Positions 14,727 to 21,673 of a stretch of DNA of 23,093 nt are shown here, in pieces. Position 1 is the first letter of the stretch; every line of letters begins with the position of its first letter. Location: positions 1 to 23,093 of the forward strand of contig JAPLOD010000620.1 in NCBI GenBank assembly GCA_026692735.1, written 5' to 3'. This DNA is from Planctomycetota bacterium. Its GTDB lineage: Bacteria; Planctomycetota; SZUA-567; H5-PLA8. The notes beneath the pieces were generated by a model, which saw nothing but the letters and a program-made list of their open reading frames with translations, was not told the origin of the DNA and ran no database searches. Position numbers and translations under genes: made by a program.

Positions 14727-14763
14727 AGCCTTCCGGGGTGCGAACCTCGGAAGGCTTTTTGTT
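14727..14763 (+). terminator. Rho-independent terminator (stem CCTTCCG/CGGAAGG followed by CTTTTTGTT)
   Basis: AGCCTTCCG-GGGTGCGAACCT-CGGAAGGCT followed by TTTTTGTT on the + strand. In the minus orientation there is no T-tract after the stem. Confidence 0.5.
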
Positions 14764-14956
14764 GCGTCGCGGAAGGAGGCACAGGCAATCGGCAGGAACA
14801 GGCGCTGTGAGAAAGGCCCCAGGCGCGGCAACGCCTGAGGCCTGAAGAGAGCCCGAGCGTCTCCGGTGAAGAGATGAACACAGTGACAGCGTCACTGTGC
14901 GCGGGGCCTCTTTGTCTTCAGAACGTAGCGCGAAAGGAGGGACAGTCAACACGGAC

Positions 14957-15030
14957 GCGGATGTAGCTCAATGGCAGAGTGCGAGCGTGCCAGGCTCGAG
15001 ACGCGGGTCCAACTCCCGCCTTCCGCTCCA
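14957..15030 (+). tRNA. tRNA-Gly (anticodon GCC), CCA encoded
   Basis: Manual fold. Acceptor GCGGATG/CTTCCGC (1 mismatch). D-arm TAGCTCAATGGCAGAG. Anticodon stem CGAGC/GCTCG with loop GTGCCAG. T-arm GCGGGTCCAACTCCCGC. 74 nt. Confidence 0.6.
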
Positions 15031-15041
15031 AAGTTGCACGC

Positions 15042-15112
15042 GCCGCGGTGTCACGGCGGCCTGCCTCTCTTGTAAGGAGGCGGCGCGGGTTCGACTCCCG
15101 CCTGCGGCTCCA
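15042..15112 (+). tRNA. tRNA-Thr-like (anticodon TGT), 71 nt with reduced D-arm
   Basis: Acceptor GCCGCGG/CTGCGGC. Anticodon stem CCTCT/GGAGG with loop CTTGTAA. T-arm GCGGGTTCGACTCCCGC. Discriminator T plus CCA. D region only 15 nt and does not fold canonically. Confidence 0.4.
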
Positions 15113-15142
15113 ACGAACGAAGGAGGTGCTTTCGCAAGCGGC

Positions 15143-15214
15143 GCCGCAGTGTGATGGGTCACAAGCCTCTTTCGTAAAGAGGCGGCGCGGGTCCGATTCC
15201 TGCCTGCGGCCCCA
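15143..15214 (+). tRNA. tRNA-Thr-like (anticodon CGT), 72 nt with mini D-arm
   Basis: Acceptor GCCGCAG/CTGCGGC. D region TGTGATGGGTCACAAG (stem GTGA/TCAC, 4-nt loop). Anticodon stem CCTCT/AGAGG with loop TTCGTAA. T-loop TCCGATT. CCA encoded. Confidence 0.4.
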
Positions 15215-15233
15215 GAACGGAAGGCACTTCAGA

Positions 15234-15307
15234 TGCGGTGTGGCGAAACGGTATCGTGCCTGCCTGTTACGCAGGAGTTGGAGGTCCGAGTCCTCCCGCC
15301 GCAGCCA
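15234..15307 (+). tRNA. tRNA-Asn (anticodon GTT)
   Basis: Acceptor TGCGGTG/CGCCGCA. D-stem GCGA/TCGT. Anticodon stem CCTGC/GCAGG with loop CTGTTAC. T-arm GGAGGTCCGAGTCCTCC. Discriminator G plus CCA. Confidence 0.6.
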
Positions 15308-15319
15308 GATAACAGGAGT

Positions 15320-15395
15320 GGCCCTGTCGTCTAGCGGTTGAGGACGCCGGCCTTTCAAGCCGGAAACCGGGGTTCGAGTCCCCGTGGGGCTGCCA
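15320..15395 (+). tRNA. tRNA-Glu (anticodon TTC)
   Basis: Glu-type body (TCGTCTAGCGGTTGAGGAC, 3-bp D-stem). Anticodon stem CCGGC/GCCGG with loop CTTTCAA. T-arm CGGGGTTCGAGTCCCCG. Acceptor pairs with 3 G-U. CCA encoded. Confidence 0.55.
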
Positions 15396-15490
15396 ACGAT
15401 TGCGGATTGAGGATTGACGATTGCGGATTGGCGTGGGTGTGATTGGGGACGTGTGTGGGACAATCCGCGATCCGCAATCTGACATCCGAA
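15396..15490. repeat. tRNA-3'-flanking palindromic heptad-repeat element, copy 1
   Basis: 5' arm ACGATTGCGGATTGAGGATTGACGATTGCGGATTGG (tandem GATTGNG heptads). 3' arm CAATCCGCGATCCGCAATCTGACATCCGAA is the imperfect reverse complement. Begins 1 nt after the CCA of tRNA-Glu. Confidence 0.7.
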
Positions 15491-15506
15491 GTGGGCAAAG
15501 CGGAGC

Positions 15507-15581
15507 GTCTCTGTCGGCTAATCAGCAGGCCGCCAGATCCTCGATCTGGAAACGCGGGTGCGAACCCCGCCGGAGACGCCA
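15507..15581 (+). tRNA. Noncanonical tRNA (possible Glu, anticodon CTC); C33, no G18G19, T-loop TGCGAAC
   Basis: Acceptor GTCTCTG/CGGAGAC. D-loop AATCAGCA lacks GG. Anticodon stem CCAGA/TCTGG with loop TCCTCGA (C at position 33). T-arm GCGGGTGCGAACCCCGC (G55). CCA encoded. Confidence 0.4.
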
Positions 15582-15658
15582 ACGATTGCGGATTGCGGAT
15601 TGACGATTGCGGATTGGTTTGCCGGGCAATCCAAAATCGCAAATCCAAAATCCAAAAT
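15582..15658. repeat. Palindromic heptad-repeat element, copy 2 (divergent 3' arm with CCAAAAT repeats)
   Basis: ACGATTGCGGATTGCGGATTGACGATTGCGGATTGG ... CAATCCAAAATCGCAAATCCAAAATCCAAAAT. Starts 1 nt after the CCA of the preceding tRNA. Confidence 0.65.
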
Positions 15659-15663
15659 GGGAA

Positions 15664-15737
15664 GGGGCGATGGTGAAACAGGATCACACGACCTCCGCAC
15701 GGTCGCGTTTCGGGTGCAAGTCCCGATCGCTCCACCA
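15664..15737 (+). tRNA. tRNA-Ala (anticodon CGC) with G3-U70; C33 and G55 variants
   Basis: Acceptor GGGGCGA/TCGCTCC gives G3-T70, the Ala identity pair. D-stem GTGA/TCAC with loop AACAGGA. Anticodon stem CGACC/GGTCG with loop TCCGCAC. T-arm TCGGGTGCAAGTCCCGA. Discriminator A plus CCA. Confidence 0.5.
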
Positions 15738-15740
15738 CAC

Positions 15741-15829
15741 GGATAGCGAACCGGCCAAGTGGCCGGCACCGTCTCGAAAACGGTTGGTCGCTTAACCGCG
15801 ATGAGGACCAGGACCTCCGCTATCCGCCA
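15741..15829 (+). tRNA. Class II tRNA-Ser (anticodon CGA) with aberrant T-loop (ACCAGGA); possibly nonfunctional
   Basis: Perfect 7-bp acceptor GGATAGC/GCTATCC, discriminator G, CCA. Anticodon arm ACCGTCTCGAAAACGGT matches the bacterial Ser(CGA) arm. Long variable arm. The T-arm lacks TTCRA. 89 nt. Confidence 0.45.
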
Positions 15830-15871
15830 GATTCGAGGAGCAGAGGGCCGGCAAGACGCCGGCGGCACAAC

Positions 15872-15962
15872 GGAAGCGCGCCAGAGCCAGGAGAGCTGGG
15901 CCGGTTTGCTACACCGGGGTCTGAAAGATGATCAGCGGGTTCGAATCCCGCCGCTTCCGCCA
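15872..15962 (+). tRNA. Class II tRNA-Ser (anticodon GCT)
   Basis: Acceptor GGAAGCG/CGCTTCC perfect. D-stem CCAG/CTGG. Anticodon stem CCGGT/ACCGG with loop TTGCTAC. 17-nt variable arm. T-arm GCGGGTTCGAATCCCGC. Discriminator G plus CCA. 91 nt. Confidence 0.6.
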
Positions 15963-15979
15963 GAAAGGAGAACGCGAGT

Positions 15980-16055
15980 GCGTCCGTAGCTCGAGCGGCA
16001 GAGCAACCGGCTCTTAACCGGTTGGGTGTGGGTTCAAGCCCCACCGGGCGCACCA
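15980..16055 (+). tRNA. tRNA-Lys (anticodon CTT)
   Basis: Acceptor GCGTCCG/CGGGCGC. TAGCTCGAGCGGCAGAGC D-arm. Anticodon stem ACCGG/CCGGT with loop CTCTTAA. T-arm GTGGGTTCAAGCCCCAC. Discriminator A plus CCA. Confidence 0.65.
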
Positions 16056-16057
16056 GA

Positions 16058-16128
16058 TAATTGCGGGTTGAGGATCTCGGATTGTGGATTGGGCTGACGC
16101 GAACACGAATGCGGAATCCGCAATCCGA
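16058..16128. repeat. Palindromic heptad-repeat element, copy 3 (degenerate)
   Basis: TAATTGCGGGTTGAGGATCTCGGATTGTGGATTGGG ... GAATGCGGAATCCGCAATCCGAGG. Arms recognisable but more diverged than the other copies. Confidence 0.5.
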
Positions 16129-16137
16129 GGTTGGAGC

Positions 16138-16214
16138 GCCGCAGTAGCCGAACAGGCACAGGCGCCTGCCTTAGAAGCAGGAGAGTGTGGGTTCAAATCA
16201 CACCTGCGGCACCA
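16138..16214 (+). tRNA. tRNA of uncertain identity: class-I structure with anticodon TAG (a Leu anticodon on a short-variable-arm body)
   Basis: Acceptor GCCGCAG/CTGCGGC, discriminator A, CCA. Anticodon stem CCTGC/GCAGG with loop CTTAGAA. 5-nt variable loop. T-arm GTGGGTTCAAATCACAC with one G-A mismatch. Confidence 0.4.
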
Positions 16215-16300
16215 AACGCACGCGGACTGAGCGCGCGAGGCTTGGCGGTTTCCTCCCGATGGCGGGAGGTGGTAGCGGGGGCGATGCGAAACAGAAAGGA

Positions 16301-16376
16301 GCGTTCGTAGCTCGAGTGGCAGAGCAGCCGGCTTTTAACCGGCAGGGTGTGGGTTCGAGCCCCACCGAGCGCACCA
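16301..16376 (+). tRNA. tRNA-Lys (anticodon TTT)
   Basis: Near-duplicate of the Lys(CTT) gene. Anticodon stem GCCGG/CCGGC with loop CTTTTAA. T-arm GTGGGTTCGAGCCCCAC. CCA encoded. Confidence 0.65.
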
Positions 16377-16378
16377 AG

Positions 16379-16474
16379 TGATTGCGGATTGGGGATTGAC
16401 GATTGCGGATTGGCTCGTGATGGCACGAGCGGCGTGCTGTTCCAATCCACAATCCGAAATCCGCAATCCGCAAT
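16379..16474. repeat. Palindromic heptad-repeat element, copy 4 (different central segment)
   Basis: GTGATTGCGGATTGGGGATTGACGATTGCGGATTGG-CTCGTGATGGCACGAGCGGCGTGCTG-TTCCAATCCACAATCCGAAATCCGCAATCCGCAAT. Confidence 0.65.
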
Positions 16475-16480
16475 GGAAGT

Positions 16481-16554
16481 TGCCGGGTCGGCCAGCGGTA
16501 GGCCGCCTGACTCTGACTCAGGAAAGCGGGGTTCGAATCCCTGCCCGGCAACCA
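16481..16554 (+). tRNA. tRNA-Gln (anticodon CTG)
   Basis: U1-A72 acceptor TGCCGGG/CCCGGCA. D-stem GGCC/GGCC. Anticodon stem CCTGA/TCAGG with loop CTCTGAC. T-arm CGGGGTTCGAATCCCTG. CCA encoded. Confidence 0.6.
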
Positions 16555-16577
16555 GAACCAGGAGGAGAGTGCTTCGC

Positions 16578-16649
16578 GCGGTCGGAGTGTTCACGGCGGC
16601 ACGCAACCCTTCCAAGGTTGAGGAGCGGGTTCGACTCCTGCCGGCCGCA
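16578..16649 (+). tRNA. tRNA-Gly (anticodon TCC), CCA not encoded
   Basis: Acceptor GCGGTCG/CGGCCGC. Anticodon stem CAACC/GGTTG with loop CTTCCAA. T-arm GCGGGTTCGACTCCTGC. 3' end ...CGGCCGC-A followed by CTT. Confidence 0.55.
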
Positions 16650-16661
16650 CTTAAGACCCAC

Positions 16662-16735
16662 TGGCCTGTCGTCCAGCGGGAGGACACTGGGCTTTGAACC
16701 CGGGGACCGAGGTTCGAATCCTCGCGGGCCAACCA
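16662..16735 (+). tRNA. tRNA-Gln (anticodon TTG)
   Basis: U1-A72 acceptor TGGCCTG/CGGGCCA. Glu/Gln-type D-arm TCGTCCAGCGGGAGGAC. Anticodon loop CTTTGAA. T-arm CGAGGTTCGAATCCTCG. CCA encoded. Confidence 0.6.
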
Positions 16736-16775
16736 GATGGGTGACGGTAAGCCTTTGTGGTGCGTGAGAAGTTGA

Positions 16776-16846
16776 CGGGCATTCGTTCCGGTTGAACGGG
16801 CGAGTCTTATAAACCCGCCGGCCAGGTTCAACTCCTGGATGCCCGA
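16776..16846 (+). pseudogene. tRNA-like element / probable tRNA pseudogene (good acceptor and T-arm, no foldable anticodon arm)
   Basis: Perfect acceptor CGGGCAT/ATGCCCG. D-stem GTTC/GAAC. T-arm CCAGGTTCAACTCCTGG. The anticodon region GGCGAGTCTTATAAACCCGCC gives only a 4-bp stem with a 13-nt loop. No CCA. Confidence 0.3.
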
Positions 16847-16864
16847 GATCGGCAACGGGGACCT

Positions 16865-16940
16865 CGGGGCGTAGCGTAGCGGCGAACGCGCCTGCGTCGG
16901 GAGCAGGAGAACGCTGGTTCGAATCCAGTCGCCCCGACCA
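16865..16940 (+). tRNA. tRNA-Pro (anticodon CGG)
   Basis: C1-G72 acceptor CGGGGCG/CGCCCCG. Anticodon stem CCTGC/GCAGG with loop GTCGGGA (G37). T-arm GCTGGTTCGAATCCAGT. Discriminator A plus CCA. Confidence 0.65.
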
Positions 16941-16963
16941 GACTAGGGAGGTGAAGAGGGAAA

Positions 16964-17041
16964 CGGGATGTAGCTCAGTTTGCGCAGAGCGCCTGGCTTG
17001 GAACCAGGAGGGCGTCGGTTCGAATCCGGCCATCCCGACCA
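16964..17041 (+). tRNA. tRNA-Pro (anticodon TGG)
   Basis: C1-G72 acceptor CGGGATG/CATCCCG. D-arm TAGCTCAGTTTGCGCAGAGC. Anticodon stem CCTGG/CCAGG with loop CTTGGAA. T-arm GTCGGTTCGAATCCGGC. CCA encoded. Confidence 0.6.
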
Positions 17042-17104
17042 GAACAGAACGTGCTGAGTGGAGAGCGACGAGTAGCGAGTGACGGGGAGAGGAGGGGAGG
17101 GCGT

Positions 17105-17179
17105 TGGGCGGTGTTGTAGCGGGCTGCATGTCTGCCTGATACGCAGACGGTGGAGGTCCAACTCCTCCCCGCCCAACCA
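17105..17179 (+). tRNA. tRNA-Ile (anticodon GAT), tentative
   Basis: Acceptor TGGGCGG/CCGCCCA. Anticodon stem TCTGC/GCAGA with loop CTGATAC. T-arm GGAGGTCCAACTCCTCC. D-stem imperfect. CCA encoded. Confidence 0.5.
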
Positions 17180-17201
17180 GAACGGGAAGCGCTGACGTTG
17201 T

Positions 17202-17276
17202 GTTGACCTCAGTGTAACGGCCGCACGCGAGAATGTGAGTCTCGAGGCACGGGTTCAACTCCCGTAGGTCAACCCA
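17202..17276 (+). tRNA. tRNA-His (anticodon GTG) with encoded G-1 and C73
   Basis: G-1 precedes acceptor TTGACCT/AGGTCAA; discriminator C (bacterial His signature). D-stem GTGT/GCAC. Anticodon stem CGAGA/TCTCG with loop ATGTGAG. T-arm ACGGGTTCAACTCCCGT. CCA encoded. Confidence 0.65.
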
Positions 17277-17278
17277 GA

Positions 17279-17367
17279 CGATTGCGGATTGATGATTGCG
17301 GATTGGGTTGGGTGTGATTGATGACGCGCGACGGCCAATCCGCAATCGTCAATCCGAAATTCGCAAT
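17279..17367. repeat. Palindromic heptad-repeat element, copy 5 (canonical)
   Basis: ACGATTGCGGATTGATGATTGCGGATTGGGTTGGGTGTGATTGATGACGCGCGACGGCCAATCCGCAATCGTCAATCCGAAATTCGCAAT. Starts 1-2 nt after the CCA of tRNA-His. Confidence 0.75.
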
Positions 17368-17373
17368 AAGAGG

Positions 17374-17449
17374 GGCCGCGTGGCCGAGCAGCGAAGGCGT
17401 CCGCCTGCAGAGCGGAAGAGCGCGGGTGCGAGTCCCGCCGCGGCCTCCA
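17374..17449 (+). tRNA. tRNA-Cys (anticodon GCA); T-loop TGCGAGT (G55), D-loop without GG
   Basis: Acceptor GGCCGCG/CGCGGCC. Discriminator T, the Cys identity U73. Anticodon stem TCCGC/GCGGA with loop CTGCAGA. T-arm GCGGGTGCGAGTCCCGC. CCA encoded. Confidence 0.6.
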
Positions 17450-17450
17450 G

Positions 17451-17518
17451 CGATTGCGGATTGGGCTGGGTGTGATTGATGACGCGCGACGGCCAATCCG
17501 CAATCGTCAATCGGCAAT
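17451..17518. repeat. Palindromic heptad-repeat element, copy 6 (short 5' arm)
   Basis: CGATTGCGGATTGGGCTGGGTGTGATTGATGACGCGCGACGGCCAATCCGCAATCGTCAATCGGCAAT. Confidence 0.7.
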
Positions 17519-17525
17519 GGGGAAC

Positions 17526-17602
17526 GTTCCCGAAGGCGAAGAAGTGGAGCCGCCACCCTGTCACGGTGGAGGAAGCCGGTGCGACTCCGGTCGGGAGCGC
17601 CA
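17526..17602 (+). tRNA. tRNA-Asp (anticodon GTC); T-loop TGCGACT (G55)
   Basis: Acceptor GTTCCCG/CGGGAGC. Discriminator G. Anticodon stem CCACC/GGTGG with loop CTGTCAC (canonical Asp loop). T-arm GCCGGTGCGACTCCGGT. CCA encoded. Confidence 0.65.
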
Positions 17603-17604
17603 GA

Positions 17605-17701
17605 ACGATTGTGGATTGATGATTGCGGATTGCGGATTGGGTTGGGTGTGATTGATGACGCGCGAGGACCAATCCGCAATCGTCAATCGGCAATCCGAAA
17701 T
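17605..17701. repeat. Palindromic heptad-repeat element, copy 7
   Basis: ACGATTGTGGATTGATGATTGCGGATTGCGGATTGGGTTGGGTGTGATTGATGACGCGCGAGGACCAATCCGCAATCGTCAATCGGCAATCCGAAAT. Confidence 0.75.
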
Positions 17702-17706
17702 GAGGA

Positions 17707-17782
17707 AGCGGGTGGCTAGGCCTGGTGGTCTGGCGGGTTTCATAAGCCTGCAAGGGTGGTTCGATTCCACTGCCCGTTACCA
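17707..17782 (+). tRNA. tRNA-Met (anticodon CAT; elongator, initiator or Ile2 not distinguishable)
   Basis: Acceptor AGCGGGT/GCCCGTT (with G-U pairs). D-stem CTAG/CTGG. Anticodon stem CGGGT/GCCTG (3 WC + 2 GU) with loop TTCATAA. T-arm GGTGGTTCGATTCCACT. Discriminator A plus CCA. Confidence 0.5.
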
Positions 17783-17784
17783 GG

Positions 17785-17880
17785 CGATTGGGGATTGATG
17801 ATTGCGGATTGCGGATTGGGCTGGGTGTGATTGATGACGCGCGAAAGCCAATCTGCAATCGGCAATCCGCAATCCGAAAT
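17785..17880. repeat. Palindromic heptad-repeat element, copy 8
   Basis: GCGATTGGGGATTGATGATTGCGGATTGCGGATTGGGCTGGGTGTGATTGATGACGCGCGAAAGCCAATCTGCAATCGGCAATCCGCAATCCGAAAT. Confidence 0.75.
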
Positions 17881-17886
17881 GAGGAC

Positions 17887-17960
17887 GGCCGCTTCGTCCA
17901 ACGGGAGGACACCAGTCCTACACACTGGGGACGAAGGTTCGATTCCTTCAGCGGCCACCA
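17887..17960 (+). tRNA. Glu/Gln-type tRNA body with anticodon TAC (Val) and C33; identity uncertain
   Basis: Perfect acceptor GGCCGCT/AGCGGCC. TCGTCCAACGGGAGGAC D-arm. Anticodon stem CCAGT/ACTGG with loop CCTACAC. T-arm GAAGGTTCGATTCCTTC. Discriminator A plus CCA. Confidence 0.4.
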
Positions 17961-18076
17961 GAAAGGAGACAGCGCAAGAGATTCGATGCCGCCGGGACCA
18001 GTGGCGCGCTTCGCCTCACCCAGTGATCGGCGCGGCGTGTTCCATGAAGGATTGTGACGAAGGCGGTGTCGGAAAA

Positions 18077-18151
18077 GGGGATGTAGCTCAACGGCAGAGC
18101 GCCGGGGATTGGCCCCGGAGGTTGCGGGTTCGAGTCCCGTCATTCCTGCCA
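18077..18151 (+). tRNA. tRNA-like gene of uncertain identity (anticodon loop GATTGGC has A at position 33; alternatively a 6-bp stem with 5-nt loop)
   Basis: Acceptor GGGGATG/CATTCCT (with G-U pairs). TAGCTCAACGGCAGAGC D-arm. Stem CCGGG/CCCGG. T-arm GCGGGTTCGAGTCCCGT. Discriminator G plus CCA. Body resembles the Gly(GCC) gene at 14957. Confidence 0.35.
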
Positions 18152-18224
18152 GGATGGCTAGCTCAGGAGGTAGAGCACCGAGCTCATAACTCGGACGTTG
18201 CGGGTTCGACTCCCGCGCCAACTG
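18152..18224 (+). tRNA. tRNA-Met (anticodon CAT), CCA not encoded; begins immediately after the CCA of the previous tRNA
   Basis: Acceptor GGATGGC/GCCAACT (one A-A mismatch at 3-70). TAGCTCAGGAGGTAGAGC D-arm. Anticodon stem CCGAG/CTCGG with canonical loop CTCATAA. T-arm GCGGGTTCGACTCCCGC. 3' end G followed by CCG. Confidence 0.55.
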
Positions 18225-18565
18225 CCGCCTTGAAAGCGGCTCGTAAACCAGGCTGGAGGGGGGCGGACGTTGCACCTGCCCGCCGGGACCGGACGCCCGT
18301 ACAGGCCCGATCCCGGCAGCACGCGACGGCGCCCTGAAGCTCGCGGATTCGCTCCGGCCCAAATCGCGGGACGTTCCTCGCGAACGCACTGGTCCACACG
18401 ACAGCGCGGGAGCGCGCGAACCGAACGCGAAAGTAGGCCGCAGCTCAAGTTGTGCTCCGCGCTGTTCGGTGTGGCGGGACATAGCTCCGCCTCCCGAAGG
18501 CCACAACGAAGAGATCAGACGGGCGACACAAGGGATCGCCCAACGAGGACGAGGAGGGACGAAAC

Positions 18566-19690
18566 ATGGTGGCGATGGGAGTGATGGTGGGCATGCGCAA
18601 GTTTAAGGTGAGGGCGCATGAGCGCGGCTTGCTGTTCAGCGACAACGAGTTCCAGGTCTTGCTCGAGCCGGGCCGCCACTGGTTCTTCGACCCGCTCTTC
18701 AAGATCAGGGTGGACGTGGTCTCGGTGCGCAACGTGTGGCTCAAGCACAGGGACCTGGACGTGATCGCCAAGTCGGGGGCGTTGGAGGGCCAGGCGCAGG
18801 TCGTGGACCTGAAGGACAACGAGCGCGCGCTGTTCTGGGTTGACGGCCGCTTTGAGGCTGTCCTCAAGCCCGGCCTGCACGCGCTGTGGACGGTCTTCCA
18901 CGACGTCAAGGTCGAGGTCGTGGACGCGCGCGCCGTGCGGTTCGAGCATGAGGGCCTGGCCGTGATCCTGAAGTCCGAGGGCGCGGGCGAGGCGTTCGAT
19001 GTGTTCAACGTGGAAGAGGGCCACGCCGGCCTCTTCTTCAAGGACGGCGAGCACAAGGCCACGCTCTCGCCCGGCGTGCACGCCTTCTGGAAGGGCCAGG
19101 GCAAGGTGAAGCTGTACCACGTGGACCTGCGTGAGCAGGTCTGCGACGTGGCCGGCCAGGAGATCATGACCGCCGATAAGGTCACGCTCCGTCTCAACGC
19201 AGTGGCGACGTACCGCGTTGTTAATGGGCTCAAGGCCGTGGCTGAAGTCGAGGACTACCGCCAGGCGCTGTACCGCGAAGCGCAGCTCGCGCTGCGCGCG
19301 GTGATCGGGACGCGCGAGCTGGATGCGCTGCTGGCGGAGAAGGACGCGGTGGCAAAGGAGCTTGAGGGCGTCCTCAAGAACCGTGCGGCCGCGCTTGGCC
19401 TGGAGGTCACGGCGCTGGGCATCAGGGACATCATCCTGCCCGGCGAGATGAAGGACCTGATGAACAAGGTCACCGAGGCCCGGAAGGCCGCCGAGGCGGC
19501 ACTGATCACGCGCCGGGAGGAGACGGCCGCGATGAGGATGCAGGCCAACACGGCCAAGATCCTCGAGACCAGCCCGACGCTGATGAGGATCCGCGAACTG
19601 GAGACCCTCGAGAAGGTTGTCGCCAAGGCCAACCTGCAGGTGGTGCTCGCGGAGAAGGGTCTTGCGGATCGTGTCATGAAGCTGCTGTGA
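18566..19690 (+). CDS. SPFH/band-7 (stomatin/prohibitin/flotillin-like) domain protein
   Basis: 374 aa. ATG at 18566 with GGAGGG 8 nt upstream. The central region carries the SPFH core with a C-terminal coiled-coil rich in E/K/A (...ITRREETAAMRMQANTAKILETSP...). Located between the two tRNA blocks on the same strand. Confidence 0.85.
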   Translation: MVAMGVMVGMRKFKVRAHERGLLFSDNEFQVLLEPGRHWFFDPLFKIRVDVVSVRNVWLKHRDLDVIAKSGALEGQAQVVDLKDNERALFWVDGRFEAVLKPGLHALWTVFHDVKVEVVDARAVRFEHEGLAVILKSEGAGEAFDVFNVEEGHAGLFFKDGEHKATLSPGVHAFWKGQGKVKLYHVDLREQVCDVAGQEIMTADKVTLRLNAVATYRVVNGLKAVAEVEDYRQALYREAQLALRAVIGTRELDALLAEKDAVAKELEGVLKNRAAALGLEVTALGIRDIILPGEMKDLMNKVTEARKAAEAALITRREETAAMRMQANTAKILETSPTLMRIRELETLEKVVAKANLQVVLAEKGLADRVMKLL

Positions 19691-19804
19691 GTGCGGCGGC
19701 TTGAACAAGGCAGTTGAAAGGAGGTGATCCGTTATCTCGTCGGCGTGCGAGGCTCCCGGGGAGGCAGCGTTCGGTCTGGCTCCTCGGGGGGCTCGCCGTC
19801 ACCC

Positions 19805-19890
19805 GCTCCCGTGGCGGAATGCAGACGCGGCCGGTTCAAACCCGGCCAGCCGTGAAGGCTGTGGAGGTGCGAATCCTCCCGGGAGCACCA
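19805..19890 (+). tRNA. Class II tRNA-Leu (anticodon CAA); T-loop TGCGAAT (G55), D-loop without GG
   Basis: Acceptor GCTCCCG/CGGGAGC perfect. D-arm TGGCGGAATGCAGACGCG (Leu-type). Anticodon stem GCCGG/CCGGC with loop TTCAAAC. Variable-arm hairpin CAGCCGTGAAGGCTG. T-arm GGAGGTGCGAATCCTCC. Discriminator A plus CCA. 86 nt. Confidence 0.65.
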
Positions 19891-19892
19891 GG

Positions 19893-19988
19893 CGATTGCG
19901 GATTGGAGATTGAGGATTGCGGATTGGGTTGGGCGTGACCGACGGCGTGCGAAGGCCAATCCGCAATCGTCAATCTGCAATCCGAAAT
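19893..19988. repeat. Palindromic heptad-repeat element, copy 9
   Basis: GCGATTGCGGATTGGAGATTGAGGATTGCGGATTGGGTTGGGCGTGACCGACGGCGTGCGAAGGCCAATCCGCAATCGTCAATCTGCAATCCGAAAT. Confidence 0.75.
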
Positions 19989-19994
19989 GAAGGG

Positions 19995-20069
19995 GCTCTC
20001 GTAGCTCAAGGGATAGAGCGGCCGGCTTCTAACCGGCTGATCGGGGTCCGAGTCCTCGCGAGAGCGCCA
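19995..20069 (+). tRNA. tRNA-Arg (anticodon TCT)
   Basis: Acceptor GCTCTCG/CGAGAGC. TAGCTCAAGGGATAGAGC D-arm. Anticodon stem GCCGG/CCGGC with loop CTTCTAA. T-arm CGGGGTCCGAGTCCTCG. Discriminator G plus CCA. Confidence 0.65.
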
Positions 20070-20080
20070 GATTGAAGGAT

Positions 20081-20156
20081 GCTCCTGTCGCTCAATGGAA
20101 CAGGGCGCTGCTCTCCTAAGGCAGAGATCCGGGTTTGAGTCCCGGCAGGAGCGCCA
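20081..20156 (+). tRNA. tRNA-Arg (anticodon CCT)
   Basis: Acceptor GCTCCTG/CAGGAGC perfect. D-stem GCTC/GGGC. Anticodon stem CTGCT/GGCAG with loop CTCCTAA. T-arm CCGGGTTTGAGTCCCGG (T-loop TTTGAGT). Discriminator G plus CCA. Confidence 0.6.
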
Positions 20157-20158
20157 GG

Positions 20159-20254
20159 CGATTGCGGATTGACGATTGTGGATTGCGGATTGGGTTGGGC
20201 GTGACCGACGACGTGCGAAGGCCAATCCGCAATCGTCAATCTACAATCCGAAAT
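20159..20254. repeat. Palindromic heptad-repeat element, copy 10
   Basis: GCGATTGCGGATTGACGATTGTGGATTGCGGATTGGGTTGGGCGTGACCGACGACGTGCGAAGGCCAATCCGCAATCGTCAATCTACAATCCGAAAT. Confidence 0.75.
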
Positions 20255-20260
20255 GAGGGG

Positions 20261-20335
20261 GCTCTCGTAGCTCAAGGGATAGAGCCGCTGGCTTCGAACC
20301 AGCAGATCGGGGTCCAAGTCCTCGCGAGAGCGCCA
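20261..20335 (+). tRNA. tRNA-Arg (anticodon TCG)
   Basis: Paralog of the Arg(TCT) gene with an identical acceptor and D-arm. Anticodon stem GCTGG/CCAGC with loop CTTCGAA. T-arm CGGGGTCCAAGTCCTCG. CCA encoded. Confidence 0.6.
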
Positions 20336-20337
20336 GG

Positions 20338-20412
20338 TCGCCCGTGGTGTAGCAGAGCGCACACGACCGTGCGAAGGTCGAGGACCGGGTGCGAGTCCCG
20401 GCGGGCGGACCA
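20338..20412 (+). tRNA. tRNA-Arg (anticodon GCG), tentative; T-loop TGCGAGT (G55), D-loop without GG
   Basis: Acceptor TCGCCCG/CGGGCGG. D-stem GTGT/GCAC with loop AGCAGAGC. Anticodon stem CGACC/GGTCG with loop GTGCGAA. T-arm CCGGGTGCGAGTCCCGG. Discriminator A plus CCA. Starts 2 nt after the previous tRNA. Confidence 0.5.
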
Positions 20413-20414
20413 GA

Positions 20415-20509
20415 CGATTGCGGATTGATGATTGTGGATTGCGGATTGGATTGGGTGTGACCGATGACGTGCGAAGGCCAGTCCGCAATCGGCAATCTGC
20501 AATCCGCAA
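20415..20509. repeat. Palindromic heptad-repeat element, copy 11
   Basis: CGATTGCGGATTGATGATTGTGGATTGCGGATTGGATTGGGTGTGACCGATGACGTGCGAAGGCCAGTCCGCAATCGGCAATCTGCAATCCGCAAT. Confidence 0.75.
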
Positions 20510-20516
20510 TAGGAAT

Positions 20517-20592
20517 GGGGCTTGAGCAGGTGTGGTCATTGCGCCCGGCTGAAAACCGGGAGAACTCGGTTCGATCCCGAGGGGCCCCACCA
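20517..20592 (+). tRNA. tRNA-Phe (anticodon GAA)
   Basis: Acceptor GGGGCTT/GGGCCCC (2 G-U). D-stem GCAG/TTGC. Anticodon stem CCCGG/CCGGG with loop CTGAAAA. T-arm CTCGGTTCGATCCCGAG. Discriminator A plus CCA. Confidence 0.65.
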
Positions 20593-20594
20593 GA

Positions 20595-20675
20595 CGATTG
20601 CGGATTGATGATTTTGGATTGCGGATTTGGTTGGGTGTGACCGATGACGTGCGGAGGCCAATCCGCAATCCACAA
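20595..20675. repeat. Palindromic heptad-repeat element, copy 12 (short 3' arm)
   Basis: CGATTGCGGATTGATGATTTTGGATTGCGGATTTGGTTGGGTGTGACCGATGACGTGCGGAGGCCAATCCGCAATCCACAAT. Confidence 0.7.
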
Positions 20676-20682
20676 TGGGAAC

Positions 20683-20771
20683 GGGGGTGGATGTGCGGAC
20701 TGGGAGCCGGGCGGGCCTGTAAAGCCCGCGCTCGATGAAGCTGGGAGGTTCGATTCCTCACGCCCCCACCA
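20683..20771 (+). tRNA. Class II tRNA-Tyr (anticodon GTA)
   Basis: Acceptor GGGGGTG/CGCCCCC. Anticodon stem CGGGC/GCCCG with canonical Tyr loop CTGTAAA. Long variable arm CGCTCGATGAAGCTG. T-arm GGAGGTTCGATTCCTCA. Discriminator A plus CCA. 89 nt. Confidence 0.6.
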
Positions 20772-20773
20772 GA

Positions 20774-20875
20774 CGATTGCGGATTGATGATTTTGGATTG
20801 CGGATTGGGTTGGGTGTGACCGATGACGTGCGGACGCCAATCCGCAATCCGAAATCCACAATCCAAAATCCAAAA
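20774..20875. repeat. Palindromic heptad-repeat element, copy 13 (3' arm extended with CCAAAAT units)
   Basis: CGATTGCGGATTGATGATTTTGGATTGCGGATTGGGTTGGGTGTGACCGATGACGTGCGGACGCCAATCCGCAATCCGAAATCCACAATCCAAAATCCAAAAT. Confidence 0.75.
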
Positions 20876-20881
20876 TAGGCC

Positions 20882-20955
20882 AAGGCGCGACGGCCCGGCG
20901 GCCTGTGCGGTCTCCAAAACCGCTCGACAGGGCTCGACACCCTGGCGCCTTGCCA
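20882..20955 (+). tRNA. tRNA-Trp (anticodon CCA)
   Basis: A1-U72 acceptor AAGGCGC/GCGCCTT perfect. Discriminator G. Anticodon stem GCGGT/ACCGC with canonical Trp loop CTCCAAA. T-arm CAGGGCTCGACACCCTG (C54). D-arm irregular. CCA encoded. Confidence 0.55.
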
Positions 20956-20959
20956 CTTG

Positions 20960-21053
20960 AGTGCGGATTGATGATTGCGGAGTGCGGATTGGGATGGGTG
21001 TGACCGCTGACGTGCGGACGCCAATCCGCAATCCGAAATCCACAATCCGCAAT
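20960..21053. repeat. Palindromic heptad-repeat element, copy 14 (5' end degenerate); lies directly upstream of the HNH gene
   Basis: GTGCGGATTGATGATTGCGGAGTGCGGATTGGGATGGGTGTGACCGCTGACGTGCGGACGCCAATCCGCAATCCGAAATCCACAATCCGCAAT. Ends 1 nt before the GGGAGGA RBS of the HNH CDS. Confidence 0.7.
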
Positions 21054-21065
21054 GGGAGGACAGCC

Positions 21066-21656
21066 GTGGTGCTGAACGATGCAACGCTGGTTCTGAACAA
21101 GCACTGGGTGCCGGTGGATTTCACCACGGTGTTGGACGCGCTATGCAAGCTGTACGCGGGTTCTGCGCGCGCCATCAAGCCTGACGATTACTCCGTGCAC
21201 GACTTCGAATCGTGGGCGCAGTTGAAGGTTGCCGAGGGCGCTCCCTGCGTGCGCACGGCCACCATCGCCATACCCGTGCCCGAGGTGATCATCCTGGCAC
21301 ACTATGGCCGCGTTCCAGACAGGGGCCTGGCGTTCTCGCGCGGCAATCTGTTCAGGCGTGACCGTTACACGTGTCAGTACTGCGGCAGGCGCCCGGGCAC
21401 CGCGGAACTCACGATTGACCACGTCAGCCCGCGCAGCCGCGGTGGCATCTCAAGCTGGACCAACTGCGTCGTTGCCTGCTTGAAGTGCAACTCCAGGAAG
21501 GCCAACAGGACGGCGGCGGAAGCCGGCCTTGTGCTGCGCCGGCAGCCTGCGAAGCCGGAGTGGAGCCCGCGGCTGGTTGTGGCTCGGATTCCGTGCAAGG
21601 CGAGCTGGGAGAAGTTCGTCTCGGACGCCTACTGGAACGTGGAACTGAAGGAGTAA
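21066..21656 (+). CDS. HNH endonuclease family protein
   Basis: GTG at 21066 with GGGAGGA (21054-21060) 5-6 nt upstream. 196 aa. Contains CQYCG(20)LTIDHVSPRSRGG(10)NCVVACLKCNSRK, a zinc-finger-flanked H-N-H motif. The ORF-track N-terminal extension back to 20961 is translation of the upstream repeat (MRIDDCGVRIG...). Confidence 0.7.
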   Translation: MVLNDATLVLNKHWVPVDFTTVLDALCKLYAGSARAIKPDDYSVHDFESWAQLKVAEGAPCVRTATIAIPVPEVIILAHYGRVPDRGLAFSRGNLFRRDRYTCQYCGRRPGTAELTIDHVSPRSRGGISSWTNCVVACLKCNSRKANRTAAEAGLVLRRQPAKPEWSPRLVVARIPCKASWEKFVSDAYWNVELKE

Positions 21657-21673
21657 GCATAGTCTGAAGGTGG

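Follow-up and report, generated by a model that had tools for sequence, protein, structure and literature searches.

A long accessory tRNA array with a partner slipin gene and a putative leader attenuator in a Planctomycetota contig

Results

The tRNA array

Default ARAGORN places 30 tRNA genes, all on the plus strand (as are all features below), at 14957–20955 of the window, the whole 23,093-nucleotide stretch analysed, and none in the rest of it. Rfam model RF00005 is reached by 24 tRNAs at its gathering score and reports 27 in E-value mode, in which a further four ARAGORN genes match the tRNA-Sec model alone, and below threshold. Three tRNAs beyond the default ARAGORN set (Glu-CTC, Asp-GTC and Ala-CGC) are recovered with Rfam, relaxed ARAGORN and orthologs, and Ser-CGA is one more candidate, by manual folding alone. 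The 6.0 kb thus hold 34 tRNA-shaped units (5.7 per kb), namely 31 credible decoders, one doubtful unit and two tRNA-like units (18077–18151 and 18152–18226). The decoders have 31 distinct anticodons and represent all 20 amino acids, and a CCA end is encoded in 31 of the 34 units. These counts bear out a preliminary description of 31–34 tandem, same-strand tRNA genes for essentially every amino acid, almost all encoding CCA. That description had proposed an ARAGORN run with about 25 calls as the lower limit; the run returns 30.

Except where stated, the following genes are supported by both ARAGORN and Rfam. The array opens with tRNA-Gly GCC (14957–15030; T loop U55C), tRNA-Thr TGT (15033–15112; low score, 39.2 bits), tRNA-Thr CGT (15143–15214; U55C, 36.6 bits), tRNA-Asn GTT (15234–15307; U55C) and tRNA-Glu TTC (15320–15395). 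tRNA-Glu CTC (15507–15581; U55G) was missed by default ARAGORN and is found by Rfam (49.7 bits) and relaxed ARAGORN. tRNA-Ala CGC (15664–15737; U55G) was called by relaxed ARAGORN, and its orthologs, 82–88% identical, by default ARAGORN. The doubtful Ser-CGA-like unit (15739–15829) has a perfect acceptor stem, G73, CCA and an aberrant T loop; neither Rfam nor relaxed ARAGORN calls it, and no homolog was found. tRNA-Ser GCT (15872–15962; ARAGORN) and tRNA-Lys CTT (15980–16055) are followed by a 77-nt tRNA with the Leu anticodon TAG and A73, without a long variable arm (16138–16214; 62.9 bits), which is homologous to short 'Leu' tRNAs of the related loci L013 and L006 and 74% identical to a tRNA of the Anabaena array locus.

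Then come tRNA-Lys TTT (16301–16376), tRNA-Gln CTG (16481–16554), tRNA-Gly TCC (16578–16650; without CCA), tRNA-Gln TTG (16662–16735), tRNA-Ile TAT (16776–16846; ARAGORN; without CCA, conserved in related arrays), tRNA-Pro CGG (16865–16940), tRNA-Pro TGG (16964–17041; 68.8 bits), tRNA-Ile GAT (17105–17179; U55C) and tRNA-His GTG (17203–17276; ARAGORN, Rfam E-value mode), whose sequence contains the G-1 noted earlier. They are followed by tRNA-Cys GCA (17374–17449; U55G) and tRNA-Asp GTC (17526–17602; U55G), the latter missed by ARAGORN, scoring 41.7 bits with Rfam and having counterparts 76–90% identical in three related arrays. An anticodon-CAT tRNA (17707–17782; ARAGORN; orthologs 88–91% identical) is a candidate Met, fMet or Ile2 tRNA, and tRNA-Val TAC occupies 17887–17960.

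Downstream of the slipin gene lie the type II tRNA-Leu CAA (19805–19890; U55G; ARAGORN, Rfam E-value mode) and, as previously described, four tRNA-Arg genes: TCT (19995–20069), CCT (20081–20156), TCG (20261–20335) and GCG (20338–20412; U55G). Arg-TCG belongs to a 205-nt hairpin-plus-tRNA unit that is 90% identical to 19866–20070 and, judging by this identity, is a recent copy of Arg-TCT whose anticodon has changed. tRNA-Phe GAA (20517–20592), tRNA-Tyr GTA (20683–20771; ARAGORN, Rfam E-value mode) and tRNA-Trp CCA (20882–20955; T loop CTCGACA; ARAGORN) complete the array. The amino acids listed in the preliminary description were all found, but Val-TAC, Ile-TAT and Leu-TAG had not been named.

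Spacers are either 0–41 nt or 63–116 nt long, with a repeat in 14 of the long class, close to the 0–40 nt or repeat element first reported. The motif GATTGCGGATTG (at most one mismatch) occurs 62 times versus 0.19 expected, always within 15398–21054. This repeat, a heptamer hairpin of generic type, is scattered through soil metagenomes as well. In order, the 14 heptamer-hairpin spacers are 15396–15506, 15582–15663, 16056–16137, 16377–16480 (z −6.3), 17277–17373 (z −9.2), 17450–17525, 17603–17706, 17783–17886, 19891–19994 (z −9.2), 20157–20260, 20413–20516, 20593–20682, 20772–20881 and 20956–21065, the last of which ends at the HNH ribosome-binding site.

T-loop position 55, otherwise near-universally U, is a different base in 12–13 of 33 members (about one third), in line with the divergent members anticipated, and several array tRNAs score 36–45 bits; some may therefore be non-functional. 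The cloverleaf is kept in approximately 31 distinct tRNA genes, and orthologs in L006, L013 and L001 are 75–91% identical with compensatory stem changes and are mostly still called as tRNAs, with an unchanged anticodon wherever this was checked. Orthologs also retain the U55G T loop in Ala, Cys, Asp and Arg-GCG. On this comparative evidence, the tRNA structure of the array is under selection. Within the clade the genes keep their order, and the flanking genes show no synteny with any of 83 related loci. An assembly artefact, raised earlier as a collapsed or misassembled repeat, is ruled out: no two of the tRNAs are the same, identity among the repeat copies is 61–96%, unlike in a collapsed repeat, and many independent assemblies contain equivalent arrays, among them the complete genome of a cultured strain.

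Decoding capacity and the HNH gene

Under standard wobble, 15 of the 61 sense codons, amounting to 18% of the 5,665 codons in the window's genes, cannot be read by the array anticodons; 8.8% are still unreadable with U34 superwobble, GCC (Ala) alone 359 times. The array is thus not the only tRNA set, and from the 18% unreadable codons canonical tRNAs must be present elsewhere in the genome. Since the array has no isoacceptors for GCC, CTC, GTC and ACC, the commonest codons, its value as a backup set is limited.

The HNH endonuclease gene (21066–21656; Pfam HNH) belongs to an L-array-associated family. Over its full length, its product is homologous to the HNH protein encoded on the delta plasmid of Nostoc PCC 7120 (34% identity over 169 amino acids), whose gene adjoins 24 tRNAs (the Anabaena trn array). 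HNH homologs occur in 18 of 83 loci, mostly large arrays, and a high-GC viral contig with a major head protein (IMG/VR) has a 38-tRNA array and a 49% identical HNH.

The locus qualifies as a tRNA array unit as defined in the literature and represents a known type, the long accessory tRNA array ("L-array"), which the preliminary description had named from cyanobacteria, mycobacteria, phages and plasmids. Of the accessory or mobile origin suggested there, the accessory part is upheld by the codon gap and the HNH homology, but the mobile part is not for this copy: the window contains no integrase or transposase, and at the DNA level it matches neither phages nor plasmids.

The slipin gene and its leader

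The slipin (SPFH/Band 7) gene, of a family associated with the Rtc RNA-repair system, lies at 18566–19690; Pfam matches (PF01145 for slipin) agree with the original assignment of both protein genes. Residues 145–360 are stomatin-like. Its relatives sit in rtcR–slipin–rtcA–rtcB operons of Geobacter, where locus L044 has the order rtcR, sigma-54 promoter, tRNA-like element, slipin, rtcA, rtcB; a Desulfobacteraceae locus (L053) has rtcR, tRNA-like element, rtcB, slipin. In 11 of 83 loci RtcB is encoded no more than 6 kb away. The Pseudomonas aeruginosa rtc locus has an embedded SPFH gene (PMC13086221). Because the window contains no rtcR, rtcB or sigma-54 promoter, the Rtc link of its slipin is by orthology only.

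A same-strand tRNA call precedes slipin in 63 of 80 genome loci, in most at a distance of 240–800 nt, and about 20 of the 80 have arrays of 16–39 tRNAs. In the window, the tRNA-like element of the slipin leader (18152–18226; model R1, 85.3 bits) lacks CCA and is called 'Met-CAT' by ARAGORN. At 62 bits or more, the model finds it upstream of slipin in 73 of 82 loci, with ordinary same-strand array tRNAs scoring at most 60 bits. Its cloverleaf shows 97.8% pairing and 93 double-change cells, which none of 500 shuffles reaches, and its anticodon loop is hypervariable. The adjacent unit 'X' (18077–18151; ARAGORN, Rfam) has a CCA end and the anticodon loop GATTGGC with A33; at 54.5 bits with the tRNA-like-element model it is the top non-element hit of the window. 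Immediately 5′ of these units, a conserved non-tRNA element (17970–18075) gives 10 nhmmer hits (nine distinct loci) in both phyla, at the same relative position. The remaining slipin 5′ leader (18227–18565) has conserved sequence blocks and no Rfam family match. The slipin gene, first taken for an interruption of the array, is instead a conserved partner with its own tRNA-like leader, around which the array appears to have grown.

The upstream leader unit

A leader-ORF/antiterminator/terminator unit, kept in two phyla, lies upstream of the array (14543–14761). Because a sigma-70 consensus scan found no promoter, the putative promoter region (14470–14542), with a −35-like TTGATT at 14480–14485, is alignment-based only: two boxes, TTGAC(A) and a purine-rich one, are conserved in register with 14 related loci. 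A Shine-Dalgarno-like GGGAGG in the same interval precedes the leader ORF (14543–14698; 51 codons, Pro-TAG end). Of 15 loci from two phyla, 14 have an in-frame ATG-to-CCC-TAG ORF of 26–58 amino acids (111 amino acids in two loci if the farthest upstream ATG is taken). The encoded peptide shows little conservation, but its Pro-stop end is invariant. The antiterminator strand CCCTAGGAAG (14693–14702) spans the leader Pro codon and stop codon, and CCCTAG.A is invariant across loci. With the 3′ arm withheld, antiterminator and terminator 5′ arm pair in all 15 loci (ΔG −17.6 to −25.6 kcal/mol). The intrinsic terminator (14727–14761; 13-bp stem and T-run) has a hairpin that is maintained by compensatory changes in both Planctomycetota and Acidobacteriota. 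It is the only plus-strand terminator found in 14300–21800 and lies upstream of the array, approximately 195 nt before the first tRNA.

Discussion

We find it somewhat more probable than not that the locus is a backup tRNA operon, gated by translation stress and set into the 5′ leader of an Rtc-type slipin gene; array, slipin and HNH are probably transcribed as one unit. Transcription would start near 14480–14520. A ribosome finishing the leader ORF would rest on its Pro-TAG end and cover CCCUAGGAAG, so that the terminator folds and the operon is off. If translation is impaired (tRNA damage or scarcity, ribosome inhibitors), the ribosome would lag, and the free CCCUAGGAAG could pair with the terminator 5′ arm, allowing RNA polymerase to read through. 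The long transcript would be cut, presumably by RNase P and 3′ processing enzymes, with the hairpin spacers as candidate RNase III sites, freeing a pool of supplementary tRNAs as well as the slipin and HNH mRNAs.

A separate promoter may instead lie in the unconserved 195 nt between terminator and first tRNA. Alternatively, the leader ORF could encode a small protein and the terminator belong to that gene.

The L-array of Anabaena has been studied experimentally. Ribosome inhibitors induce it, aminoacylation is seen for 23 of its 26 tRNAs, and it shares its regulation with HNH and rtcB (PMC8421152); the TrcR regulon comprises the trn operon, HNH, rtcB and a slipin (PMC10272220). For the Anabaena trn operon a backup role in translational stress has been shown by experiment; for the present locus it is proposed from sequence. 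We found no published account of array–slipin–HNH wiring behind a predicted attenuator. Long tRNA arrays are already known; new are the slipin partnership, the tRNA-like element, the predicted leader attenuator unit and the make-up of the inter-tRNA repeat. If the proposed mechanism is true, the locus would provide its host with reserve tRNAs when translation is under stress or tRNAs are damaged.

Composition of the tRNA array

ARAGORN finds 30 tRNA genes between positions 14957 and 20955, all on the + strand, and none elsewhere in the window. With the Rfam tRNA model, 24 genes reach the gathering score and 27 are recovered in E-value mode. The array members score 36–69 bits, and the Tyr, Trp and Ile-TAT genes and the CAT tRNA at 17707 appear in Rfam solely as sub-threshold matches to tRNA-Sec. 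Three further genes, Glu-CTC (15507–15581), Asp-GTC (17526–17602) and Ala-CGC (15664–15737), were added on the strength of a second method or of orthologs. A Ser-CGA-like unit at 15739–15829 was called manually; its acceptor stem is perfect, G73 and CCA are present, its T loop is aberrant and a homolog search with it returned nothing.

The total comes to 34 tRNA-shaped units: 31 credible decoders, one doubtful unit and two tRNA-like units. The decoders carry 31 different anticodons, Ile-UAU and Arg-GCG among them, and represent all 20 amino acids; the CAT tRNA is present in a single copy. A CCA end is encoded in 31 of the 34 units. The preliminary description had proposed a dense same-strand array of about 34 tRNA or tRNA-like genes, covering essentially every amino acid and nearly all encoding CCA. 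This picture holds, and the ARAGORN count of 30 lies above the roughly 25 genes on which that description had staked its case.

A tRNA array unit is defined by at least 20 tRNA genes per region and at least two per kb (Tran et al. 2016). ARAGORN alone finds 30 genes in the region, the number rises to 33 when a second method or orthologs are admitted as support, and 34 units in 5,999 nt amount to 5.7 per kb, with the 1.6-kb slipin segment included. As described for L-arrays (Santamaria-Gomez et al. 2021), all genes share one orientation and are spaced closely enough for co-transcription, with spacers of 0–116 nt; no + strand terminator was found inside the array. The array is formally a tRNA array unit and shows most of the L-array features tested.

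The slipin gene and its tRNA-like leader element

The slipin (SPFH) gene at 18566–19690 has more than 6,700 database relatives, the best 120 of which are 63–85% identical. Genome matches fall into Planctomycetota, Acidobacteriota (Vicinamibacteria and Thermoanaerobaculia), Desulfobacterota and Victivallales. At 63 of 80 genome loci, ARAGORN places a same-strand tRNA 5′ of the slipin gene, mostly 240–800 nt away, and about 20 of the 80 loci have arrays of 16–39 tRNAs. Judged by this recurrent placement, the slipin is a conserved partner of the array and not the interruption for which it had initially been taken.

Slipin residues 1–140 (18566–18990) have no Pfam match and contain repeated modules of about 65 aa; some homologs (P0003 and P0020) have one or two additional modules of this kind. 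In two Planctomycetota loci, a GNAT acetyltransferase gene lies inside the array or leader 5′ of the slipin gene (L001, 7044–7598; L005, 8558–9103). GNAT genes are also TrcR-regulated in Anabaena (PMC10272220).

The tRNA call nearest to the slipin gene is often odd, with A34, a stop anticodon or a malformed loop. Thirty slipin-proximal units from three phyla align as one homologous tRNA-like element, which in the window corresponds to the ARAGORN 'Met-CAT' call at 18152–18226. In the 30-unit alignment, the D arm is invariant and the anticodon and T stems covary; conservation of the acceptor stem is limited to four pairs, and the anticodon loop is hypervariable, with no constant U33. The stated cloverleaf pairs 97.8% of the cells, with changes on both sides in 93 cells. 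None of 500 shuffles equals the cloverleaf statistic, and structures shifted by 1–3 columns pair 26–46%.

With a covariance model of the element, 73 of 82 slipin loci give a score of 62 bits or more, once per locus and rarely twice; four of the nine loci lacking a match have less than 360 nt of upstream sequence. Ordinary array tRNAs on the same strand score at most 60 bits with this model. The window element reaches 85.3 bits, and the neighbouring tRNA-like unit (18077–18151), which has A33, is next best with 54.5 bits. The unit at 18152–18226 does not qualify as a canonical tRNA, since it lacks CCA and its homologs have only four conserved acceptor pairs, a variable loop and no conserved U33. 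A few loci contain two copies, which are in tandem in L034 (9553–9697) and L005 (9344–9507); those of L035 lie at 9324 and 11163, one of them downstream of the slipin gene.

The 339-nt slipin leader that follows the element contains conserved sequence blocks. In a consensus fold of this leader, RNAalifold gave one 4-bp long-range helix only. Just 5′ of the tRNA-like units lies a conserved non-tRNA element of about 100 nt (17970–18075), for which 10 nhmmer matches at the same relative position were obtained from nine distinct loci in Planctomycetota and Acidobacteriota. No Rfam family matches the tRNA-like element, the slipin leader blocks or 17970–18075. Rfam was likewise of no help in identifying spacers and leaders, as the only matches beyond tRNA (YrlA, miRNA and Tymo-tRNA-like) were far below threshold.

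Relatives of the slipin in RNA repair operons

In a Geobacter locus (L044), a divergent rtcR gene is followed by a sigma-54 promoter (TGGCAC-N5-TTGTA), the tRNA-like element, a slipin gene, rtcA and rtcB. A Desulfobacteraceae locus (L053) has the order rtcR, tRNA-like element, rtcB and slipin. The two slipins are 61–62% identical to that of the window, over residues 6–374 and 15–374, and rtcB lies within about 6 kb of the slipin gene in 11 of 83 loci. Full-length orthology and the same tRNA-like leader place the window slipin in this Rtc-associated family. An SPFH gene is also embedded in the rtc locus of P. aeruginosa (PMC13086221). tRNA halves with a terminal cyclic phosphate activate RtcR, and in Salmonella the tRNA-like YrlA RNA is encoded in the rtc operon (PMC7790460).

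The genes of these relatives of the window slipin open or close RtcR/sigma-54 operons that contain rtcA and rtcB, and the YrlA tRNA mimic occupies the 5′ end of the Salmonella rsr-yrlBA-rtcBA operon in the same way as the tRNA-like element. Nevertheless, the window itself is not an Rtc operon, since it contains no rtcR, rtcA, rtcB or rsr gene and no sigma-54 promoter; promoter matches did not rise above chance, whereas the Geobacter relative has one. The element also differs from YrlA in being a full cloverleaf with an anticodon arm. It is not a bacterial Y RNA by the Rfam model (RF02553), with which it scores 29.7 bits against a gathering score of 69, and a TROVE/Ro gene (rsr, Ro60) is absent among the window proteins scanned.

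In Citrobacter, a distant slipin (35% identity) follows rtcR in a locus from which rtcB is absent (L206). On an E. coli STEC replicon (L004, 6004–7928) and in Citrobacter freundii (L206, 3960–7913), such a slipin gene and a nucleotidyltransferase-domain gene lie between yjbD (DUF3811) and lysC. The C. freundii pair is found behind a divergent rtcR and a sigma-54-like promoter, with a T-arm-like sequence in the leader, and looks like a second RtcR-controlled operon without rtcB. A Burkholderia locus has a tRNA-like unit of 55 bits 264 nt upstream of a distant-type slipin gene.

A predicted attenuator upstream of the array

The sole intrinsic terminator on the + strand within 14300–21800 is located at 14727–14761, about 195 nt 5′ of the first tRNA. 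The terminator hairpin is kept in 14 related loci from Planctomycetota and Thermoanaerobaculia, together with an invariant CCCTAG[G/A]A motif 26–31 nt upstream of the hairpin. The pair is mostly found about 150–260 nt (35–600 nt overall) before the first tRNA, and in array-less loci it precedes the tRNA-like element instead. Farther 5′, the aligned loci have in common a TTGAC(A) box, a purine-rich box and an ATG. An open reading frame from ATG to CCC-TAG (14543–14698 in the window) is present in 14 of 15 loci, the sequence of the fifteenth ending short upstream. It has 26–58 codons, or 111 in two loci if counted from the farthest upstream ATG, and apart from the Pro-stop end the leader peptides are poorly conserved.

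In folds computed without the 3′ arm of the terminator, the minimum free energy structure of all 15 sequences has CCCUAGRA joined to the 5′ arm, with 7–10 of ten bases paired at −17.6 to −25.6 kcal/mol. In the window, the corresponding antiterminator strand is CCCTAGGAAG (14693–14702). With a leader ORF in 14 of 15 loci, the alternative pairing in 15 of 15, a U-run and a conserved terminator, the upstream unit has the predicted architecture of a ribosome-mediated attenuator. In such a mechanism, a ribosome terminating at the end of the leader ORF would cover the antiterminator strand and transcription would end at the terminator; if the ribosome lagged behind, the polymerase could read through into the array. 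Control of the array and the slipin gene by such folding is hypothetical. L-arrays are described as silent under normal conditions and induced by translational stress, and in the window the predicted attenuator is the one feature that speaks for such behaviour. A sigma-70 promoter scan gave zero matches, and a separate promoter may lie 3′ of the terminator.

The predicted unit resembles attenuators of the trp/his/thr type and the leader-peptide control of antibiotic-inducible genes in its short leader ORF, its mutually exclusive antiterminator and terminator hairpins, its U-run and its stop codon inside the antiterminator strand. However, attenuators of the trp/his/thr type precede biosynthetic genes, whereas that of the window precedes tRNA genes and a slipin gene. 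In addition, the window leader peptide is variable save for Pro-stop, no regulatory codon run was found in it, and the upstream leader has no Rfam family. The array occupies the stretch from the attenuator to the tRNA-like element, which is most simply explained by its insertion into, or growth within, the leader of the slipin operon.

Hairpins in the tRNA spacers

Fourteen spacers fold as long imperfect hairpins (−29 to −57 kcal/mol, z down to −9.2). Their arms are made of tandem heptamers, GATTGNG in one arm and CNCAATC in the other, and each hairpin spans its spacer, beginning 2–4 nt past the CCA. Other arrays have other heptamers, namely GATCTGT (L001), GGATTCA (L013) and GGGTTCA (L073). 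The hairpin core of the window, GATTGCGGATTGG...CCAATCCGCAATC (15398–21054), occurs in at least 120 metagenome contigs with a GC content of 0.42–0.72 (L085–L164 inspected), usually as a single copy and in some cases right after a stop codon; of the 80 copies inspected, just five have a tRNA within 150 nt. This distribution rules out an array-specific repeat. Because the metagenome copies are mostly away from tRNAs, the hairpin is a generic, dispersed sequence that has colonised the array, and it looks like a widespread REP-like or terminator-like element.

Cyanobacterial STRR heptamer repeats are an example of intergenic hairpins built from tandem heptamers. The window hairpins have in common with REP-like and heptamer elements the tandem 7-nt arms and the long imperfect intergenic fold, and the GATTGCG hairpin is likewise dispersed; they differ in that 14 copies are packed into a 5.7-kb array, each filling an inter-tRNA spacer. 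They may be RNase III processing sites. A 205-nt cassette of hairpin and tRNA-Arg is duplicated with 90% identity (19866–20070 and 20132–20336), and in the copy the anticodon has changed from TCT to TCG, with the anticodon stem altered to match. This recent duplication with an anticodon shift suggests that the hairpins may act as recombination substrates.

Maintenance of the array genes

Two types of array can be distinguished, and gene order is conserved within planctomycete clades. The window belongs to type A, which is nearly the same in the Planctomycetota contigs L006, L013 and L001 and reads Gly, Thr, Asn, Ala, Glu, Lys, Gln, Gly, Gln, Ile, Pro, Pro, Ile, His, Cys, ..., Met, Val, two tRNA-like units, slipin, a Leu/Arg block, Trp or Tyr, and HNH. 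Type B comprises about 15 loci, mostly labelled Pirellulales, Planctomycetaceae or Planctomycetia, with HNH within the array and slipin at the array end. The related array of the cultured Lacipirellula limnantheis I41 is of type B and is not accompanied by the attenuator motif. Type B (Planctomycetia) arrays almost never encode CCA (0–4 of 16–39 genes in L023, L036, L058, L073 and others), and five non-array tRNAs in type B loci also lack it. CCA is almost always encoded in type A, acidobacterial and high-GC viral-contig arrays (compared: window, L001, L006, L013 and L009). Weighed as a mark of foreign origin, encoded CCA is ambiguous.

The window tRNAs are 75–91% identical to their type A orthologs, with compensatory changes in the stems; most of these orthologs remain tRNA calls, and the anticodon is unchanged where checked. 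At T-loop position 55, 12–13 of 33 members have G or C rather than the near-universal U. U55G is kept in nearly all detected orthologs of Ala-CGC (3/4), Cys, Asp and Arg-GCG. U55C is limited to the window lineage in Gly-GCC, Thr-CGT, Ile-GAT, Arg-TCT and Arg-TCG, and in Asn it is common to L006. The six U55C genes are the tRNAs at 14957, 15143, 15234, 17105, 19995 and 20261; except for Asn in L006, their orthologs have TTCGA. Six identical changes in different genes are unlike random decay.

One explanation, which we consider rather unlikely, is that the array serves defence or anti-defence rather than a general stress backup, supplying nuclease-resistant or modification-independent tRNAs, and that the tRNA-like element is a sentinel or decoy targeted by anticodon nucleases. 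Decoding through lysidine-CAU and ACG/inosine depends on modification enzymes, and the array anticodons avoid both, with Ile-UAU and Arg-GCG instead; in addition, Lys, Glu, Gln and Arg have pairs of U34 and C34 isoacceptors. The replacement of U55 in 12–13 genes and the hypervariable anticodon loop on a strongly conserved tRNA-like body point in the same direction, as does a viral contig with a major head protein gene that carries a 38-tRNA array and the same HNH family. Furthermore, slipin relatives belong to operons under RtcR, a regulator that cleaved tRNAs activate (PMC7790460), and mycobacterial arrays have been discussed as anti-defence systems (PMC12803027). Nevertheless, genes for toxins, nucleases or defence were not seen in the window, PADLOC yields no match for the slipin and just weak generic (PtuB-like) matches for the HNH protein, and the hypervariable loop may be simply unconstrained.

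It is unlikely that the array was acquired horizontally and is now cryptic and decaying, with little or no transcription and with slipin and HNH as mere neighbours. Cryptic status was long assumed for published L-arrays (PMC8421152), and several features of the window agree with it: many members score 36–50 bits in the covariance-model search, about one-third have a non-canonical T-loop position 55 (five of the six U55C changes being lineage-specific), isoacceptors of L013 and L001 such as Ala-GGC, Val-GAC/CAC and Leu-CAG/GAG are missing, and a generic repeat has colonised the spacers. However, gene order and cloverleaves have been preserved, with compensated stems, despite divergence to 75–91% identity. 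The array retains 31 distinct anticodons for 20 amino acids and intact CCA ends, and the upstream attenuator and slipin leader are conserved across phyla. Decay would not predict a U55G common to orthologs, and the repetition of U55C in six genes is more suggestive of selection or conversion than of random decay. By these signs the array is kept up rather than merely decaying.

Decoding capacity

We applied standard wobble rules to the 31 anticodons and the 5,665 codons of ten window genes. The array has no reader for 15 sense codons, which make up 18.4% of the codon usage of these genes and include GCC (359 occurrences, the most used codon), CTC, GTC and ACC; the unreadable share is still 8.8% if every U34 reads all four bases. 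Since these 15 codons have no reader in the array, further tRNA genes presumably exist outside it. It is therefore highly improbable that the array is the main tRNA operon of the organism, even though all 20 amino acids are present, anticodons are never duplicated and similarly ordered arrays, some with up to 39 tRNAs, are widespread in Planctomycetota. Apart from the unread codons, GCC among them, a single CAT tRNA leaves no separate initiator and elongator Met, many members have low scores, and a terminator/attenuator lies upstream of the array.

The HNH gene and the question of mobility

The 196-aa HNH protein (21066–21656) is 34% identical over 169 aa, full length, to the HNH protein of the Nostoc PCC 7120 delta plasmid (BLASTP E 9e-31), the gene of which is directly upstream of the 24 ARAGORN-called tRNAs of the trn operon. 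A linked HNH gene of the all8564 type is a further L-array feature of the window. Co-oriented HNH homologs are found in 18 of 83 slipin loci, chiefly in large arrays.

In IMG/VR, 54 contigs encode relatives of the HNH protein. The closest are 47–49% identical, have a GC content of about 0.60 and adjoin arrays of up to 38 CCA-encoding tRNAs. One high-GC viral contig (IMGVR_UViG_3300043178_000075; L212, 76–9851) carries 38 CCA-encoding tRNAs and an HNH gene whose product is 49% identical, and the array is flanked by a gene for a major head protein (phrog_138, E 1.9e-73) and a head–tail adaptor-like gene. HNH-plus-array modules of this kind are therefore found on viral contigs. Recent exchange with these arrays was rejected, since none of the window tRNAs exceeds 79% identity to the viral-contig tRNAs that were sampled.

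The genes flanking the window array are of chromosomal type and do not indicate a phage- or plasmid-borne array. They encode two giant TPR proteins, ExbB, ExbD, a prenyltransferase-like protein, a TAT-signal GFO/IDH/MocA oxidoreductase, a HEAT-repeat protein and RhaT, and no flank synteny with related loci was found. GC content is 0.60–0.72; GC skew becomes positive within the array, which is what G-rich tRNA genes on the + strand would produce. The preliminary description had suggested an accessory or mobile origin, and proposed to check for breaks in GC skew or codon usage at the array borders and for similar arrays in phages and plasmids. There is no compositional break at either border. 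With blastn of the whole array, phage and plasmid collections gave single-tRNA matches only, and a phage or plasmid identity was rejected on this basis. Spread by horizontal transfer is favoured by the non-syntenic flanks and by the related HNH-plus-array module beside a phage major head protein gene on a viral contig; against it stand the gene order conserved within planctomycete clades, the uniform composition across the borders and the lack of phage, integrase or transposase genes in the 23-kb window.

That the array is prophage or mobile cargo at this site, spread by the HNH protein as a homing endonuclease, is hardly credible: the HNH family does lie beside tRNA clusters in 23 of 58 IMG/VR loci (nine with at least 10 tRNAs, one by the major head protein), the array flanks are non-syntenic with those of relatives and a homing role has been proposed (PMC8421152), but mobile genes and border breaks are lacking, phage and plasmid DNA matches are limited to single tRNAs, identity to viral-contig tRNAs does not exceed 79%, and the position and orientation of the HNH gene are fixed per array type, which suggests a resident gene.

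Discussion

The window array as such is of a type already known, and L-arrays have previously been recorded in a few Planctomycetes (PMC4758250, PMC8421152). A close parallel is the trn operon of Anabaena sp. PCC 7120 (Santamaria-Gomez et al. 2021; Wang et al. 2023). Both are long same-strand arrays with short spacers, an adjacent homologous HNH gene (34% identity) and a short tRNA that has a Leu anticodon and no long variable arm; as in Anabaena, the window tRNAs are presumably supernumerary, judging by codon coverage. The Anabaena array is induced by ribosome inhibitors, upon which 23 of its 26 tRNAs become aminoacylated (PMC8421152), and a trcR mutant jointly de-represses the L-array, HNH, rtcB and slipin (PMC10272220). 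The link to rtcB and slipin is thus one of co-regulation in Anabaena and of physical linkage in the slipin family of the window.

The two systems differ in several respects. The window slipin gene lies inside the array and has a tRNA-like element ahead of it. Anabaena trn is controlled through TrcR repeats over the promoter, whereas the window has a predicted leader-peptide attenuator. The window array, from a planctomycete, also has many spacers with long heptamer hairpins, Ile-UAU and Arg-GCG.

The Leu-UAG gene (16138–16214) is 77 nt long and lacks a long variable arm. The Anabaena array has four short (75–78 nt) 'Leu' tRNAs (L207, 4326–4862), and the window Leu-TAG gene is 74% identical to a sequence in this locus. 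The short Leu tRNAs hint at a common ancestry of planctomycete and cyanobacterial L-arrays.

Arrays of Mycobacterium, Firmicutes, Acidithiobacillus and phages (Tran et al. 2016; Morgado and Vicente 2018) share with the window the formal definition, divergent members and frequent HNH neighbours. In contrast to these, the window has no plasmid, ICE or phage backbone, and similarity is limited to single tRNAs. A slipin, tRNA-like element or attenuator is not described for them in the literature searched, and the same literature describes neither the physical fusion of an L-array with an Rtc-type slipin nor the conserved tRNA-like leader element nor the leader-peptide attenuator.

We tentatively propose, as a possibility somewhat short of probable, that the array is an outgrowth of a conserved, hitherto undescribed translation-surveillance module consisting of the Pro-stop attenuator, a tRNA-mimic RNA and the Rtc-type slipin. 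The mimic would serve as a sentinel or decoy for tRNA cleavage, and arrays would have been inserted repeatedly between attenuator and mimic. The range of such a module would include at least Planctomycetota and Acidobacteriota, and some of its parts would also occur in Desulfobacterota and at a Burkholderia locus. Its tRNA mimic, with a free-running anticodon loop, would possibly feed the RtcR signal, and a backup decoding set would have come to be governed directly by how well ribosomes perform.

Long accessory tRNA arrays are widespread, and functional data exist for the Anabaena array only, the control of which by a cyanobacterial repressor is not transferable to other phyla. The window neighbourhood, with slipin, tRNA mimic and, in relatives, rtcB, corresponds to the gene set under joint regulation with the array in Anabaena, which makes the association look old and functional, not a matter of chance. 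The conserved and parallel U55 replacements and the modification-independent anticodons bear on the possible escape of alternative tRNA pools from tRNA-targeting enzymes. Lacipirellula limnantheis I41, as a cultured carrier, makes expression and slipin experiments possible. The predicted switch, with the leader stop codon inside the antiterminator, would tie tRNA supply to ribosome performance.
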